The position numbers were made by a program, and so were the translations under genes. 64,000 nucleotides of DNA, taken from assembly GCA_951406725.2 (NCBI GenBank), contig OX597831.1:31806001-31870000 (forward strand). Direction: 5' to 3'. This DNA comes from Octopus vulgaris. Lineage: Eukaryota. Of this stretch, positions 13,232-62,720 are shown in pieces (position 1 is the first letter of the stretch; each line of letters starts with the position of its first letter). A model generated the notes under the pieces. It was not told where the DNA came from and searched no databases. It was given only the letters and a program-made list of their open reading frames with translations.

Positions 13232-13425
13232 ATGGTTGCAGAGGGGGCTTCTTGCCGGTCTACAGCTTTAGTTATTCCGTTGTTGCTGTTGTCAATCTTT
13301 GTGCCGTCGGCTTTCACGTTCAACATCGACACAAGAAATGTTTTTATCGTATCGGGGCCCAACGGATCTTATTTCGGATATTCTTTGGCTTTTTACCAAC
13401 ATCCACAGCAACAAGAAAATCCCAA
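13232..13425 (+). CDS. Integrin alpha subunit, first coding exon (signal peptide plus start of the beta-propeller)
   Basis: Translation MVAEGASCRSTALVIPLLLLSIFVPSAFT|FNIDTRNVFIVSGPNGSYFGYSLAFY. The hydrophobic signal peptide is followed by the integrin-alpha mature N-terminus FN(L/I)D and the GPxGSYFGYS motif of the first propeller repeat. It ends at a canonical donor AA|GTAAGT (13426-13431, phase 2), just before the expected LLVGAP. Confidence 0.88.
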
Positions 13426-13601
13426 GTAAGTAATTCGCTTTCTCGTTCTCAACTTCACTCTCTCTCTCTCTCTGCTTCACTTTCTCTCTTTCGCTGCTTC
13501 ACTTTCTCTCTCTCTCTCTCAGCTTGTCTTTCTTTCTCTTCTACTTTCTCTATTATCCGTCTCTGTTTCTTTCACTCCTCTCTTTCCTTTTATCACCCTA
13601 T

Positions 13602-35130: not shown

Positions 35131-36653
35131 TATTAGTCGACATACAACATATATGAAACAATATGAAACAAACACCCACCAAATAGTCACTAGTTTGTAT
35201 AGGAAGCTGTGGTAGGAGACGAGACTATCTACTCTCTAACAAAGAACTTTGATAGAAAAGTTAGTACTTTCATCTCAGTTCGGCAACTGCAATACGTGCA
35301 CATACACACACAGTTATCTGCATACGCATAAGTACTTAAATGTTCACACACACCCACATACGCCCATCTACATATACGTATAGCCACATATGAAGAAAAT
35401 GGGTTTTATAACTAAGACACGCAACACATATATATTTAGCCTAATTAACAATTGAGCCCTAACTCAGCCACCAGCATATTTTGTCCCTTAGTTTCCGGTA
35501 TCTTTTTATTAGTTCATTCATCATACACCTTTAATGCACGCACGCGCACACACACACACATATATGCGCGCGCATTTCCTTGTTAAACCTACGATCTATT
35601 TATATAAATACCTACAAGCCAATTAACCATTTAGAACTAGTCTACCTGCTTATACATAAATAATGTGTGTGTATATAGCAAGCAGGTATGCATACACACA
35701 CACACACACACATATATATACACATACACATACATACATACATCAATAAATACGCACACACACACATACACCATTATCAGCTTTGAGCCAGCTGTTTAAG
35801 GGTTCGTCTATAGATTTCAGTAAAGAGGTAGACGTAGGTGGGGGTCGGGGTGAGGATGAGAGGGTGCCAACGGCGGCGGCGGCGACGACGGTGATGGTGG
35901 TTGGAAGAGTGTATGTTTGTTTATAACACATCTTGGTTTTCTTTCTACCCACTAATCAAGATTACCGAGGCCATCTCATGTGTGTGTGTGTGTGTGTGTG
36001 TCTAGCTTTCCAGCTTCCCCCAACTCTCCCGTCCGTCCGTCTGTTCAAACCCATGGGAGCCGCTGGATGTCATATGTGTGTGTGTGTCTAAACGTTTGTT
36101 TCTAAACGGAACCAAGGTCACACCCTACTCCCCCCCACACACTGTCAGTTAACTTCAATTATCGGCTCTCTTAGTCGCTCCCTATGGTTGTCTCGATAAC
36201 TTTTTTACAAAATACCACCAATCCGCTCTCCCTTCTCTTTCTCTCTCTCTCTCTCACTCACACACACACACACACACACACACAATTGGAATAGACAGTA
36301 GATATCCACCCCCCACCACCACCATACCCCTCTACTTAGCCCTTCAATTTCAGGGATGTTTTACTCCCACTTTCTGTACTTAGTTTGTACGTAGGATAGA
36401 TTTCCTGCTTATGCTTTCGTTGTCGTTGTTGTTGTTGTTGTTATTGGCAACGATGGCGGCAGTGAAATTGGTATGGAATTTGGTGGTGGTGGTGGTGGCA
36501 GCGGTGATAGTCAAGAGGGTAGCGTCGGCGTTGGAAGTGGTGCGGAGGGCAGCGGTGATGGGAACTGGATCTATCCTATTACACGGCACTATCTTTATGG
36601 TGTGTGAATGGATAACATTTCACTTATTAATGTTCGGGAGTAACTGAACTTAC

Positions 36654-40700: not shown

Positions 40701-41873
40701 TCAAAGCTGGTTGTCAGGCATTTGCCCAAGGTCTGACACAGTGGGACTGAACCCAAGACCATGAGGTTGGGAAGCAAGCTTCTTATCCACACACACACAC
40801 ATACACATACAATGTTATCTGTTTCAAAAAACCAAGGGAAGTGAAAGGTGAAGAATTTAGGTTCTCTACAGAGAAACATGGAATAGTGGTAAAAGGTTTA
40901 AACCAAATCCCCAAGTTGCTAATTCACTGACCCCGGTATGTCTTCATGATTGATTATCTCAAATAACTTTTGGCCACCAGTGACCACAGAATAAAAATAA
41001 ATTTTAAAAAAAAAGAAAATACGCAAAACTGAAAATAGCATTACAGGAAATGTGAAGGTACAGCATTACTGTGGTGGCGGCAGCGACGGTGGTGGTGGTG
41101 GTGATGATGGCAGTGGTGGTAGCAATGATGGTGGTGAGAGTGGTGTGGATTCACATATGACAAGCACATTAAACATTCATTCATCATTGCAGAGTCTTTA
41201 TCTACTTTAATCTATTTATGATCAGATGTTTCTTGAGAGAGGGTGATGGTGGCCTGTGGTTGCAGCTGGCTAATATTCCTATTGCCCACTGGGGAGAGGG
41301 GTGCGTGTGTATGTGAGAAAGAGAGAGAGAGATGGTGTTCTCATTAAATATAAACATTAAAATACTTCTCATGTTTGATCAAAAATTTCAGCAAGAAGAT
41401 GTTCTTCCATCATTAAAAAGTTGCTAGTTTGCTCACACACACACTCCCCTGGTTTCAGTCATTGAATTGAGGTCATACTGGAGCATAGCCTTTGAGGATA
41501 TAATTGGTTTCGAACTCAAGAAAATGAAAGTTGAAGTTAACCTGGAAGAGGTTTCCAGTCAGAACTTCAGGGCCCAGTCAAATCCCACATTGCCCTTTCA
41601 TATGTTCTATTTTGACAAGGTTTCTGTGGCTGAATACCTTTCCTGATGCCAACCAATTTACAGAATGTACTCAGAGCATTTTATAGTGGAACCAGCATTA
41701 GAGAGATTACATTGTCCCTTGAAAGACTAAAAAATTCTCTCTATGTTGTCTGTGTTCACTGTTTGTGCCCAATCTTCAATAAGATCATATCAGTCCACTG
41801 TTTCTTCAAATGATAAAATGTTTATAAAAAAATTGAAATAAATATTTAAAAATATATGTATATATATATATAT

Positions 41874-44872: not shown

Positions 44873-46975
44873 TGTAACTAACATTAAAATGCTAACCAGA
44901 TATAATCATGCAATGAATAAAGAAGTCTTATTTATCGGTTACTCTATTATTTAGTAAGTCCAAGAGAATTATTTCTAAATAGCTTTTCAATGCTGCTTTC
45001 ATTGAATATATTTTTTATATCCAGGAGTTGGATAAATAATTTAAGGAAGCAGTGGGGAAGGTCAGTTTAATAGAGATGTGTCAGTCCACTTCTAGTCACA
45101 TGAGGGTGGTTGGAATTCTTCCACAACATCTCTTTTTAGAATTAGTCTCTCCTAACTTCTCTCTTTTGAAAATTAAACTCCGCTCAGAGTTTTAATATCT
45201 CTTACACTTAGGGTTCAATTCCAGTGTTTCTGTTCTTTTCAATTTTCTGGTGTTGTTTGGGTGTTGGTACCTCAAATGTGTCATACAAATACTTCCATGG
45301 GGATTTCATTTCTCATCACTCTTTTTTCCGTGAATCTTTTTTTAAGTTGGTTAATATGTCTTTTTATGTTCAACATTTTTTCCTTTTACCAGGAATAACA
45401 CTCCCACCTTTCTTTTCCATATCTATAGGTTTAAAAAAAATTTTGTCACCTAACTTGAAGAATTTTGAAGTATTTATGTTGTTCGCTTTTTTTCTATTTT
45501 TACTTGATATCATTTTATCAAAAGTGGATCTGATCTTTCTAGCAAACATCAATTCTGTGGGTGACATTCCAGATGGGGTATTGGATTAAGTGTTACTTGA
45601 TACACTCTTAGTGCTCTCTTGAAAGTGTCAACAAAATGCTCCGTGTGTCCATTTGAGCTCAGATGATAGGACAGAGTGGTGACATGTTTGATAACAAACA
45701 TTTTACAAAATTTTCTGAACTCATCTGAAGTAAACTGAGTTCCATTAACAGACACAATGGTATCAGGAATACCATATCTCGCAAACAATTTGTGTAAAAA
45801 ACTGTAACTGCAGATGTCAGCTTTATACACTTATGCACTTTGGGCCACTTTGAAAAACTGTCCAACACAACAAGGTAATATGAACTCTTAAGAGGACCCG
45901 CATAATCAACATGCAGTCTGGACCATGGAATATCTATTTTTGGCCACAGTTGCCATTTAGTGGTACATATTTTTGCAGCTAGGGCACACCCTCTGCATGC
46001 TTTCACCATTTCTTCAATGTCACACTCCATTGTTGCCAATATACATAACTTCTCATTAATCATTTCATTCTAGAAATCCCTGGGTGACCAATGTGAAATT
46101 CCTTTAGTAATTGATTCTGTAGTGTGGCTGGCACTATGACTCTGTGCATACACCAATGCATTGCCACACACTGAGAATGGGTTTGCATTTGTGTTGCACA
46201 TATTTTTATTTCTTTTAGCCGTCAACATTTCTTTCATTATCGTTTTTGGATTTCAATTTTATACCTTGTAAACTAACTGGCAGTTCACGAATGACATTAC
46301 ACAAAATATTTTGCATTTCATTTTCCACTTGCAAAGCAGCAATCACAGTATCTTCAAATGATTCCATATTTTTTAAAATTAGTCTTCACAGACAATCAGC
46401 GTGACCCAATTTCTTGGAGGGTATATACTCCATCTTGAAATCATAGTTTAATAATATCATACCCTAGCATTGCAACCTATTAGCAGTATGGGTAGGGATT
46501 CCTTTCTTTGACCCAAATATTGATAATAATGGATGATGATCAGTCTGTAGTCAAAAGCTTCTACTGTGTAAAAATCTGTGAAATTTTCTCACAGCCAAAA
46601 TAACTGTCCATCCAATTTTTACATTCTTTTTTGAAGATTTCTCTGTATCTTTGAAAATATGCAGAGAAGGTGATCCCTTCCTCTGATTTATAACAGAATT
46701 CTTCAATTGAATTTGCTATGCTGTCTAGCAAGTAAGAACCCGCAGTATTTTCCGACTTCTTCAACTTTAATTCCAGCAACTGTTGATTTTGTTGTTGTTG
46801 CAACTGCACCACAGAGGCCAACAAGTTCTCCATGTTAAAACGATATTTTTCTTTGGTTTTATATCAAAAAAAAAAAAAAAAAGAAAAAATTCGAAATGTC
46901 CAACACAAGCTTCAAACAACTCAGTATTGTTGTCTTTCTCCAATACCACCAGGTATTGTTGTCTTTCTCCAACTA
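44873..46975 (-). mobile_element. Decayed, internally deleted Gypsy/Ty3 LTR retrotransposon
   Basis: Gag-like MENLL...IANSIEEFCYKSEEGITFSAYFQRY (46561-46833); RNase H end LLNYDFKMEYIP...GHAD (~46400-46470); integrase CRGC...PWSRLHVDYAGP...VLDSFSKWP, LFARYGIPDTIVSVNGTQFTS and SSNGHTEHFVDTFK. A purine tract followed by TGTTGT at 45128 marks the probable 3' LTR start; the LTR far end is approximate. Confidence 0.9.
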
Positions 46976-53117: not shown

Positions 53118-54755
53118 GATGTAAATGAGCATATGATGGAGCCACTATGTGGTCAACTAACCTACTAGAAAGAGCACACAAATTTCCTTAAAATCACATC
53201 TAGCCATCTTTGAAGGAAGGTAAAATATATAGAGAGATATTGTAGTTATAGATGTACTATGTCTGAAAAGAAGATGGGATTGTCATGGCTGGAATGCCTT
53301 TGATCATAAATCTCTTTAATCAGGGCTAATTTGAGGTTAAACCACAAAATACATCAAATACATTATAATAACAAATAAACAAAAATTAACTCTTCCCCTC
53401 TGAAAAACTTTAAATATTTGTCCCATCTGTGTAAACATGTTTCGACAACTAAACTTCCCTTAAATTTGATCTACAAGCCAAGGTTTACATTACTCATATC
53501 CATGTTGTCTCTAACTCTCCTGCTGTTTTCATTTTCTTAAATCCCTTTACAATCATAATTAAGCTGATGCATCAAATCTGATATGTTTCTCTGGGACTCT
53601 CAGAGGGGAAATTTCTAGGTGCATCATATGGTTATTCATGACCAAAGGGGATCTTTATCCCTTATATTTTCTACATCATATATGGTACATTACTATTTGA
53701 TTGTTGTTACTTAACCCTTGGTCAAGGGTCAAAAATATTCAGCTAACAAGTACAAAGACCAGAGAATTCTTATGAGTACAGAACTCAATTCCTGTGATTG
53801 TAAGCTGTAAAGGAATCTCTTATTCCCATGTTGACTTCACCTAAAGAACTATGGTGTGTATGTGTTTATTTTGTTTCAATCATCACAGCCAAGGCTAAGC
53901 AGGAGCACCACCTTTAAAATACTATGTATTAAATTTCCATTTGATATACATCTCTCTCTCTCTTCAGTAAACATAATTCATTCTGCTTCAGAGTGATCCT
54001 CATTCCATCTTTTTAAAATGATTTGTCCAAGGAAGAGGGACAGTTTCCATTACCTTCAGGAGTTGTTCCCGAAAGTGTAAAGCTGAGAGTAAATGTGGGA
54101 AATTAAGGAGATTCCAGGAGATTGCAATTCAGAAGGAAGGATTGGTAATCTCTAAAGTTGATAGTTCACTGTTGTAAATAGATGACGGTGGGAGCATTGT
54201 ATTACCACTGTGTTGTTTTTGTAGCCTGCAGTGATAGTATACTGAAGCAGGAGAGGTAAGATACGGGGATTGTTATTATTATTGTGAATGGTTTATACCA
54301 AACAAGCAACACCCTGCTACTCCAAGGTGTTCTGGGAATAATCAGTCAACACACAAGTATTTTAACAGTAAATATAACAGTGAGAATAATAATAAACTAT
54401 TTTCCAATGGTTTTTATTGATGCAACTAACCCCACTGGTTTCAAACAGAATAAAAGCATGACTTAATAGTTTGAAAACTAAACAACAAAACAATATTTCT
54501 TCATGAAAGGATAAAACTAAAACTATATTTTAGCTGCAGATATCATTAGCACAGTTATTGAGTGCCTAGTGCAGTCACTGTTCTCCTTTTCTCTGTTCCT
54601 AATCGAGAAATTGTTAGTACTGTTGCTGAATATCTCTCGTTGTGAGATTTACAAATAGTAATTTTCTAATTTATAGATCAGTGACTAGTTGTCATTTTGA
54701 AAACTATATATTTCAAACAGGAATTTGGCAACGCCACCACTAGCTGAACAATTAC

Positions 54756-54800
54756 TCTGTGCTGATGAAGAGAAATAACCCGGAAATCGTGATACACAGA
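54756..54800 (+). ncRNA. Minimal type I hammerhead-like motif
   Basis: TCTGTG-CTGATGA-AGAGAAATAACCCG-GAAA-TCGTGA-TA-CACAGA. Perfect 6-bp stem I, extended by AACAAT/ATTGTT, AGCT/AGCT and CCACT/AGTGG; AUA triplet; stem II weak. Confidence 0.65.
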
Positions 54801-55239
54801 TATTGTTTTGAGCTGAGTGGGGTGCTAGATTCCCTTGTTTGAAAAATGTAAGGACACAGATCATGTCATATAGCCAGCTGGAGACGATGTCTCCTGGGGC
54901 TAAATTACAGCAACATTTGTCCTAAACCAGGACTGCCATGTTATGTTGGCAAACAACCTTTACTCCAAAGTACTGTTGCTGAGTATCTCTCGTTGTGAGA
55001 TTTACAAATAGAAATTTTCTAAATTCTTAGTATTTCATAACAATTCCAAACTATTTATTTAATTGAGGTTCATGTCTCATTGCACAAAAAATGTTTAGCA
55101 TGAGGATAGAGGAAATGTCAAGGGGAGTGGTCACAATTACTGTTGTTCTAAAATGCATGAGCGTATTAGCATTATAAAATGAAACTATATTAACTATAAT
55201 TCACCTATAATTCAATAGTTTACTTTATATATATATATA

Positions 55240-55590
55240 GGTGCAGGCGTGGCTGTGTGGTAAGAAGCTTGCTTCCCAACTAAGTTCAGTCCCACTGTGT
55301 AGCACACGGGCCAACCAAAGCCTTGTGAGTGGATCTGGTTGATGGAAACTGAAAGAAGCCTGTCATATATATGTGTGTGTATATATGCTTGTGTGTCTGT
55401 GTTTGTCCCTCCTATCATTGCTTGACAACTGTTGTTGTGTTTATGTCCCCGTAACTTAGTGGTTTAGCAAAAGAGACCGATAGAATATGTACTAGGCTTA
55501 CAAAGAATAAGTTCTGTGGTCAATTTGTTCGACTAAAGGCGATGCTCCAGCATGGCTGCAGTCAAATGACAGAAACAAGTAAAAGAATTT
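55240..55590 (+). mobile_element. Diverged SINE A
   Basis: Same consensus with an internal deletion. Confidence 0.85.
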
Positions 55591-60905: not shown

Positions 60906-61400
60906 TTGAAATAAAATATATCTCAAGGCACACACAAAGACATAAAGAATAGCATGCTATTGTCTATAGCTTTATGTGTGTGCTTTAAGATATGCTATAC
61001 CAAAAAAACAAGAATTATTTTTTAATTCTCTCGAAAGTAAAATTATGGCATCAAGGCTTATTCTTTACAGGTGCTAGTGCCACATAAAATGCATTTGTGC
61101 CAGTGCTGAGTAAACGCACCCATGCCAGTGGCACACAAGAAGCACCCAGTGCCTCTGTAAAGTGGTTGACATTGTGAAGGGCATCCAGTCATAGAAACCA
61201 TGCCACAACAGACATTTGGAGTTTGGACAGCTTCCTGGCTGGATCAACCAAAGAAAGCCTTGTGGGTGGATTTGTTAGACAAACTGAAAGAACAGAAGTA
61301 ATACATTTCTAAATCTCTCAGAGAGATTTATGCAGTAGTAGCATGATAAAGTGATAGTATGTTGTCAACTTAATGTGACAGTCCCATGAAAAGGAAGAAT

Positions 61401-62135
61401 CATCATCATCTTCATCATTATTGTTTAACGTCCGCTTTCCATGCTGGCATGGGTTGGACAGTTTGACTGAGGACTGGCGAGTCAGATGGCTGCACCAGGC
61501 TCCAATCTGATCTGGCAGAGTTTCTACAGCTGGATACTCTTCCTAACGCCAACCACTCTGAGAGTGTAGTGGATGCTTTTACACACCACCAGCACAAGGG
61601 CCAGTCTAGCAGAATTGGCAACAACCTCGTTCGAATGTTGTTTTTCACGTGTCACCAGCACAAGTGCCAGTAAGGTGACGCTGATAACAATCACACACGA
61701 ATGGTGCTTTTTACGTGCCACAGGCAACGATCATGCTCGGATGGTGCTCTTAGTGTTCCACTAGCATGGATGCAAGTCATGCGGTGCTGTCATTGGCCAC
61801 ATCAGTGAATTTGATTTCGATTTCACTTGCCTCAACAGGTCTTCGCAAGCAGAGTTTAGTGTCCAATGAAAGAAAGGTACGCATAAGTGGGCTGGTTACA
61901 CCCACTGGCATAGGCCATGGTTTATGGTCTCACTTGACTTGTCGGGTCTTCTCAAGAACAGCATATTTCCAAAGGTCTTGGTCACTAGTTATTGCCTTGG
62001 TGAGGCCTAATATTTGAAGGTCGTGTTTCACCACCTCATCCCAGGTATTTCTGGGTCTACCTCTTCCACAGGTTCTCTCAACTGCTAGGGTGAGACACTT
62101 TTTTACACAGCTATCCTCATCCATTCTCACCACAT
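61401..62135 (-). mobile_element. 3' end of an RTE LINE (ORF C-terminus, long 3' UTR, (GAT)n tail)
   Basis: ORF 61930-62133 reads VRMDEDSCVKKC...GRGRPRNTWDEVVKHDL. The same 3' UTR recurs without the ORF at about 40320-40500, 41874-42215, 49050-49250, 56420-56640, 60165-60345 and 60670-60905. Confidence 0.88.
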
Positions 62136-62262
62136 GCTACTGTTGGACATTACACATTTCCTATGTCCTTATATTTCTATTTTCAAAAATCAGTGAATGC
62201 ATTTCACTTGAAATATATGTTTACAAAGACAGATAGGCATCAACAGCTAGCAAGCCATGCTA

Positions 62263-62307
62263 CTCCAGACTGATGATGAGCAATGACTCTGAAACTCGAC
62301 TCTGAAG
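62263..62307 (+). ncRNA. Decayed minimal hammerhead-like motif
   Basis: CTCCAGA-CTGATGA-TGAGCAATGACTCT-GAAAC-TC-GAC-TCTGAAG. Stem I has one mismatch and the conserved U before the cleavage site reads A. Confidence 0.4.
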
Positions 62308-62720
62308 GCTGGCTTTGCCAGGTGGAGGTGCTTAGCTTCACTTTGAAAACATAAGGTCACAGGAAATGTGTCAAGTCCAACAGGAAATGGTGTTTCCTAG
62401 GGCTAAATAACAGTAGCATTCTTCCCTTTCATGGGACTGTCACATTAATTTGACAACATGCTATCACTTCAAACTGAAAGAAGCCTGTCATGTGTGTGTG
62501 TGTGTGTGTGTGTGTTATAAAATGTGATAATTGTAAATGATTGTCACTGTCATACAAGCAGTGTCATTCATTTTCAATATTCTGCAAGAACATCTCTGGC
62601 CATGGAGAAATATTTCCCTACTTGGAAATGGGCTGGTGACAAGAAGGGCATCCAGCAAGAGAAAATCTGCCTCAAACTCCCTTCAACCCATGCAAACATA
62701 GGAAAGTGGACATTAAAACG

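Follow-up and report, generated by a model that had tools for sequence, protein, structure and literature searches.

How did a short unit with a hammerhead ribozyme between two direct repeats come to lie in an intron of an octopus gene, and what kind of template and enzyme brought it there? In the preliminary description, the stretch from 54616 to 55022 was read as a monomer plus an overlap, copied from a circular or multimeric RNA. We investigated this stretch in a window of 64,000 nucleotides of Octopus vulgaris DNA, which is the whole stretch that was analysed and to which all positions refer (Table 1). It is a decayed copy of a high-copy, non-coding Octopus hammerhead repeat, which is likely a non-autonomous non-LTR retrozyme moved by Penelope-like enzymes.

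Table 1. Features of the hammerhead unit, its insertion site, its relatives and the host gene in the 64-kb window.
Feature	Position	Strand	Evidence
First coding exon of the Octopus integrin alpha gene	13232..13425	+	Translation matches residues 1-65 of P0003 exactly
Left copy of the likely target-site duplication (AAATTGTTAGTA)	54608..54619	+	11/12 identical to 55021-55032
First 54-bp block, putative Penelope-like 'tail' segment of the monomer	54616..54669	+	Depth at family level; joined head to tail in other copies
Body of the 353-nt monomer, non-coding	54670..54968	+	Six-frame translation; 72% identical to copy B (205/286 aligned bases)
Predicted long rod extending helix I	54705..54850	+	Folding; copy B gives a similar rod
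Type I hammerhead	54756..54800	+	6-bp helix I, 3-bp helix II over a 1x1 mismatch, 2-bp helix III
Second 54-bp block	54969..55022	+	Block end is a preferred family 3' end; 63 (X1) and 49 (X13) contigs
Right copy of the likely target-site duplication (AAATTCTTAGTA)	55021..55032	+	11/12 identical to 54608-54619
Copy C, 5'-truncated, B-like 3' end followed by a block-like stretch	61294..61404	-	nhmmer E 1.1e-8 with B
Inverted piece of the copy B interior (~62352-62383) at the 5' end of B	62140..62171	-	nhmmer self-match E 3.4e-9
Copy B, diverged relative with a hammerhead at 62264-62306	62174..62471	+	nhmmer E 3.8e-17; fold z -3.8

The terminal direct repeats of the 353-bp unit, already recognized in the preliminary description, were recovered by blastn (E 6e-20) at a spacing of 353. 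They are identical at 52 of 54 positions, the two mismatches being at 54630/54983 and 54659/55012. The monomer has a G+C content of 38.5% and stop codons in all six frames; no coding potential was found in the unit, the longest frame of which (78 aa, minus strand) has no Pfam match.

The type I hammerhead proposed earlier for this unit was found with its core intact (CUGAUGA at 54762-54768 and GAAA at 54783-54786). Helix I (54756-54761/54795-54800) is formed by Watson-Crick pairs at all six positions, helix II (54770-54781) carries a loop of 6 nt (AAAUAA) and an unpaired A-G at its base, and helix III (54786-54793) is near-palindromic, with 2 bp closing a CGUG loop. Cleavage is predicted after A54794. 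The hammerhead descriptor matched once in the 64-kb window, and a stricter descriptor, which also gave one match in the window, was matched by 2 of 5000 dinucleotide shuffles of the unit. A whole-window Rfam search at gathering score gave no matches, and one of 54300-55300 at E ≤ 10 gave four weak and unrelated matches, with no hammerhead among them. An extension of helix I had been described with a length of about 25 nt; the extension itself is borne out by folding, and its predicted length is greater, with about 50 nt on each side of the rod. The fold of the linear monomer gave a z of -5.4, with 0 of 100 shuffles as stable, and that of the circular monomer a z of -5.2 to -6.1, with 0 of 60 shuffles as stable.

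The locus was compared with public short-read contigs at 80% likeness, in four of 24 runs (X1, X13, X4 and X17). X1 and X13 are DNA runs, with 9,922 and 7,504 contigs matched, respectively; X4 and X17 were taken as RNA by guess, and X4 covers both flanks too. Contigs carry no information on expression level, strand or circularity, and a head-to-tail junction is present in the DNA as well. Over most of the unit, the block included, the summed contig depth was 1e5-1e6 in X1 and X13, a value which stands for 'very many copies' and not for a copy number, and short-read contigs collapse tandem repeats. The flanks had a depth of 40-55 on both sides in X1 and of 51 on the left side in X13. Relative to the left flank, the depth was about 5,000-fold (X1) and 8,600-fold (X13) within the block at 54620-54649, 5,700-fold and 3,500-fold at the ribozyme, and 32,000-fold and 28,000-fold at 54920-54949. 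The depth over 54860-54950, about 3-8 times that at the ribozyme, is confounded by the local alignment of the studied copy, which has indels near 54818 and 54842.

In other copies of the family, 54616 is preceded by the 3' end of the unit itself (40 contigs in X13, with an agreement of 0.72, and 6 in X17). Joints lead back to the start of the body or of the block, from 54953 to 54616 in both X1 and X13, from 55006 to 54692 and from 55021 to 54690, and the block and the ribozyme are linked in single contig pieces (54616-54836 and 54627-54784). The preliminary description had raised the possibility that the 54 bp might be missing from other copies; the block is as high-copy as the body and is joined to it on both sides. 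Being present at family-level depth and joined to the body in other copies, the 54 bp are family DNA and not a plain target duplication. Since other copies join the end of the body to the block and the block to the start of the body, the insertion is 1.15 monomers joined head to tail.

The 3' ends of the family are not spread evenly over the unit. Among the 24 of 843 loose ends listed, they lie at 54669, the equivalent of 55022, in 63 (X1) and 49 (X13) contigs, at 54964 in 44 and 46 contigs, and at 54953 in 37 contigs. Beyond these three ends the contigs continue for a median of 188-255 letters of AT-rich sequence with an agreement of 0.41-0.47, and these long continuations of low agreement were therefore taken as unrelated flanks. 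Within the same 24 loose ends, the preferred family 3' ends flank the block at a distance of about 54-58 nt from each other, and the studied copy has its 3' end at 55022. Other loose ends, at 54843, 54864, 54904 and 54925, continue into a family-like consensus and mark local divergence of the studied copy. The copying of a monomer plus an overlap from a circular or multimeric RNA is thus supported, but not the free circular permutation which had been considered with it, as the 3' ends cluster at two or three sites.

Strand inversions account for 8 of the 15 joints listed (84 in total), each of them in a single contig and at scattered places. The clustered 3' ends, together with the 5' truncations and the inversions, match the hallmarks of Penelope elements (PMC8557442) and the tail delimited by two start sites that is described in PMC11167929. 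By analogy, the 54-bp block would be the 'tail' of the family, as it lies between two preferred end sites. Among the 32 of 18,944 contig pieces listed, no contig had two hammerheads on the same strand. In one X1 contig of 589 bases, 54616-54806 and 54690-54925 lie on opposite strands and are separated by 160 bases, which places two hammerhead regions in a head-to-head inverted arrangement. A scan of metagenomes with the ribozyme motif and a scan of viral contigs both gave no matches. Metagenome matches to the motif of the 3' part, at three loci, were taken as chance, their homology ending within 25-36 bases.

The contigs also show what the ribozyme of the family looks like. In the four runs, 76-95% of the depth at 54771 is G and 58-95% of that at 54790 is C; the studied copy departs from this family majority at both positions, the first in helix II and the second in the helix III palindrome. 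With the majority letters helix II is paired and the 8-base palindrome of helix III is perfect; at 54782 the family has G or A. None of the departures from the studied copy lies in the hammerhead core among the 40 of 109 listed. The loss of the core from the consensus, a possibility raised at the outset, was thus not seen, and the family majority keeps or even improves the hammerhead.

According to PMC4209133, a short palindromic helix III marks hammerheads that cut as dimers, and a 2-bp helix III is reported to require a second copy nearby. Copy B, itself broken and at a distance of 7.5 kb, is the nearest same-strand partner of the studied hammerhead. Within helix II of the studied copy the central pair is A-C; the catalytic fold of this copy has +2.1 kcal/mol as compared with -6.5 kcal/mol for the local minimum, and at least 16 of its 407 places differ from the X1 majority. 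Therefore, the mismatched helix II, the lack of a near intact partner, the disfavoured catalytic fold and these departures together indicate, at the level of sequence, that the studied copy is decayed and its ribozyme probably impaired or inert.

Two further members of the family, copies B and C, were found in the window. Copy B is apparently shorter by two helix III bases, including the U before the cut site, and its ribozyme is likely dead. When helix I of the studied copy (A) is compared with that of B, four of the six pairs are changed on both sides and all four still pair, one is unchanged and one is broken in B. The two bases at the bottom of helix II do not pair in either copy (A-G in A, U-U in B), and both copies have a loop of 6 nt and a UAC bulge 5' of helix I. 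In the fold of the A/B alignment, 14 of 50 predicted pairs are changed on both sides, a count which is based on a two-sequence alignment whose gap at helix III is misplaced, and which is supportive only. The compensatory changes in helix I, a covariation between two copies, and the majority letters suggest selection on the ribozyme of the family.

Copy B aligns to the body; against the block it scores 17, which does not exceed the scores of shuffled sequences. At its 5' end B has an internal piece of itself in inverted orientation, and its 3' end adjoins a different repeat; B is therefore uninformative on whether the block is a target duplication. Copy C, about 770 bp from B and in the opposite orientation, is identical to the 3' end of B at 49 of 52 bases, and the block-like stretch that follows was matched by 1 of 5000 shuffles for the first repeat and by 7 of 5000 for the second. 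This stretch of copy C forms a hairpin. The match of copy B to the body without the block is what would be predicted if a 299-bp element were simply bordered by a 54-bp target duplication of unique intron sequence, and such a duplication was the initial reading of the repeats. It is, however, ruled out for practical purposes by the family-level depth of the block, by its joins to the body on both sides in other copies and by the block-like stretch of copy C, while the ends of B are explained by the inversion and the repeat junction.

Copies B (sense, 62470-62490) and C (antisense, ~61250-61293) adjoin one short stretch, AAACTGAAAGAA, with which 55345-55390 can be compared. The abundant repeat that holds AAACTGAAAGAA beside both copies is presumably SINE-like, and the shared neighbour may reflect a target preference or chance. 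The (-) strand frame at 61933-62136, beside the inverted piece of B, resembles what we take to be the C-terminal end of a LINE ORF; Pfam gave no match for this frame. A weak nhmmer match at 36062-36167 was rejected as a family copy, its alignment being without the hammerhead core, and a further nhmmer match lies near 41850. At 46564-46863 (-), a stop-to-stop frame of 100 aa with a DUF7083 match (E 2.4e-6) is probably a transposon remnant.

The ends of the studied insertion refine the monomer-plus-overlap reading, in that the two 54-bp repeats are enclosed by a separate, likely target-site duplication. A flanking duplication of this length was reached by 3 of 3000 random AT-rich junction pairs. 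Its length is given as 10-12 bp, as both X4 and a single X13 contig have C at 55022. The last four bases of the left duplication overlap the first four of the element (54616-54619), a 5' microhomology. No empty-site joint was present among the 15 of 84 joints listed. In organism E (run X13), the left flank differs at 16 of 326 bases and runs on into the block, and the insertion is therefore likely older than the split from organism E. The right flank of X13 is without cover at 55040-55219, where a deletion, divergence or filtering is possible.

These junctions also bear on whether the 54-bp repeat could stem from a re-insertion into an older tail fragment, or from a local duplication of the block at the DNA level. 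The 5' end of the studied copy falls exactly at the inner preferred end site, joints occur one base before 54616 in several contigs, and the terminal repeat of a Penelope element can be a substrate of its own endonuclease (PMC11167929). Nevertheless, a single 10-12 bp duplication surrounds both blocks, the 4-base microhomology accounts for the 5' end, and the continuity from block to body is present in other copies, so that we regard either origin as quite unlikely.

The host gene is identified by its first coding exon. P0003 is the integrin alpha-4 of Octopus vulgaris, and the PDB matches of the exon are integrin alpha chains. A GT donor follows exon 1 directly, at 13426, and no later exon of P0003 was found within the 64-kb window; the unit therefore lies in intron 1 in the sense orientation. 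A sense orientation in an integrin intron had been suggested in the preliminary description. Intron 1 is at least 50 kb long, with exon 2 outside the window. On the (+) strand, 360 bp upstream of the element, 31 bases at 54225-54255 between a pyrimidine-rich AG and GTAAG have the look of a small exon; none of the 7-residue pieces of P0003 mapped there.

A ribozyme kept by the host to cut and regulate the integrin pre-mRNA could be imagined from the sense orientation in intron 1, the intact core residues and the left junction shared with organism E across a flank with 16 of 326 bases different. The studied copy is, however, one among very many dispersed copies; its catalytic fold is disfavoured, its departures from the X1 majority, at least 16 in 407, extend to helices II and III, and hammerheads with a helix III of 2 bp reportedly depend on a second copy close by (PMC4209133). 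Such a role in the host is thus very improbable.

By its testable features, the octopus family, known here from DNA, is an animal non-LTR retrozyme as described by Cervera & de la Pena (2020, PMC7229834), where circles and cleavage are shown for mussel, coral and axolotl. In common with these elements, it has a non-coding monomer within 150-450 bp and a G+C content under 45-50%, a canonical type I hammerhead with a short palindromic helix III, a self-paired fold, many copies, a head-to-tail junction and a target duplication of more than 4 bp. The canonical shape was defined by a 6-bp helix I, a 4-bp helix II and a helix III of 1-2 bp with a palindromic loop. The octopus monomer of 353 nt compares with 350-390 bp in mussel and 330/350 bp in axolotl, and its mismatch at the base of helix II (U-U in B, A-G or A-A in family A) parallels the U-U of the axolotl HHR_Amex2. 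In contrast to the animal non-LTR retrozymes of PMC7229834, the octopus copies seen appear mostly dispersed and 5'-truncated, with fixed 3' ends.

A 2026 preprint (Li, Clavereau & Pollet, 10.64898/2026.07.22.740005) argues that non-LTR retrozymes derive, as non-autonomous elements, from Penelope elements and their pLTRs. It proposes the same origin and the same helper as we do here, and in Xenopus it describes both dispersed monomers and intronic copies as common. Its evidence is vertebrate co-occurrence and pLTR phylogeny, with no mollusc among its four invertebrates, whereas the octopus evidence comes from insertion junctions, an analysis of which was not found in the parts of the preprint consulted. 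There, 'active' refers to arrays with two or more hammerheads, which the octopus locus is not, and eight of nine tested dimers did not cut.

The octopus insertions resemble Penelope-like elements in their partial tandem structure, in the optional 3' extension between preferred ends and in the 5' truncation (PMC11167929, PMC8557442, PMC3846280, PMC4209133), as well as in the inverted 5' pieces, the AT-rich target, the short duplication, the 5' microhomology and the hammerhead. In Penelope elements, an optional tail of 30-40 bp, 5' truncation, partial tandems and inverted 5' pieces are standard (PMC8557442), and the tail of the anole element is the stretch between two internal start sites of reverse transcription (PMC11167929); the octopus extension, of 54-58 bp, is longer than these tails. 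Target duplications of 8-10 bp are found for rotifer Penelopes (PMC3846280). The octopus hammerhead differs from the minimal motif in being canonical, with one extra base before GAAA relative to the minimal consensus (PMC4209133).

Could the unit then be the shed pseudo-LTR of a still autonomous Penelope, with the tail at both ends, instead of a member of a self-standing retrozyme family? The tail-like 3' ends, the inversions and the 5' truncation would suit it, an AUG lies within the hammerhead core at 54765, as in the anole element (PMC11167929), and vertebrate retrozymes are placed as sister to pLTRs (10.64898/2026.07.22.740005). On the other hand, the frame from 54765 stops after 25 codons in the studied copy, and past the block the contigs re-enter the start of the body or unrelated sequence (agreement 0.41-0.42) with no common ORF. 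The canonical 6-bp helix I with a short helix II also contrasts with the helix II of 7-8 bp in the minimal pLTR motif of schistosomes (PMC4209133). We therefore consider a shed pseudo-LTR unlikely, and retain the self-standing family of non-autonomous retrozymes.

As compared with an autonomous Penelope, the octopus unit is without an RT/GIY-YIG ORF, and both of its flanks are at single-copy depth in X1. Schistosoma alpha, reportedly a set of short, non-coding, dispersed SINE-like hammerhead repeats, is likened to the octopus family by description only. The same holds for the non-autonomous Chlamys elements such as MRC1 (PMC8557442), which are short, non-coding and of Penelope type; the Chlamys/Naiad group is without canonical hammerheads in that source, unlike the octopus repeat. 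A plant LTR retrozyme carries a type III hammerhead inside each LTR of 300-400 bp and makes a 4-bp target duplication (PMC5680766). This class was ruled out, since the single hammerhead of the octopus unit is of type I and lies outside the 54-bp repeats, and the duplication measures 10-12 bp.

Considering the studied insertion as a retrozyme moved by Penelope-like enzymes, we propose the following course of events. Head-to-tail copies would be transcribed, and two of their hammerheads would dimerize by way of the palindromic helix III, with cleavage following the position of A54794; the monomers might then be circularized by ligation. A nick in AT-rich DNA, made by a Penelope endonuclease, would be followed by copying with the Penelope reverse transcriptase from either of two internal sites about 54-58 nt apart. 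For the studied copy, the start would be at the outer site, 55022, and copying would proceed across the cut position and beyond one full unit; its 5' end would be joined to the target by the microhomology of four bases (54616-54619). Since the insertion, the studied copy has lost pairing in helices II and III.

As the copy is longer than one unit and continuous across the cut position, the template was presumably not a cut linear monomer. A ligated circle and an uncut multimer, which DNA cannot separate, appear about equally probable, and the later collapse of a longer tandem insert would have the same appearance. For the anole Penelope element, uncut RNA is the main substrate in vitro and ribozyme cutting is unnecessary for insertion (PMC11167929), so that the insertion could do without a circle. 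Of the Octopus vulgaris genome, 6.83% is taken up by Penelope-like elements, 31 families of which are called recently active (PMC13282606); candidate helpers therefore exist in this species.

The class to which the repeat belongs is known, and the octopus family extends animal non-LTR retrozymes to cephalopods. The main text of PMC7229834 names no cephalopod, and our literature search, which left most subscription papers outside, found no paper on octopus or cephalopod hammerhead repeats. In the available text and supplement of the 2026 repeat annotation of Octopus vulgaris (PMC13282606), ribozymes are not mentioned, and the family may already stand in repeat libraries as Penelope, SINE or 'unknown'.

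The studied locus is ordinary and decayed, and the value of the family lies in the handle that it gives on which enzymes and which template move animal retrozymes. Penelope elements have been called 'a strong candidate' for this role (PMC7229834), with the mechanism of retrozyme mobilisation remaining to be worked out (10.64898/2026.07.22.740005). Here, a retrozyme-shaped family present in many copies combines Penelope-type ends, i.e. a tail, 5' truncation, inversions and a 10-12 bp duplication, with a length of more than one unit, which makes it a cheap, large-sample test of how animal retrozymes move. It is possible, and we put this forward tentatively, that thousands of Octopus insertions derive from a retrozyme expressed as an abundant RNA circle, on which a Penelope reverse transcriptase began at two fixed start sites and in some cases went on for more than one turn. 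If this is true, the junctions would be a direct, genome-wide record of Penelope enzymes moving animal retrozymes through circular templates, a link which has so far been argued from co-occurrence and phylogeny.
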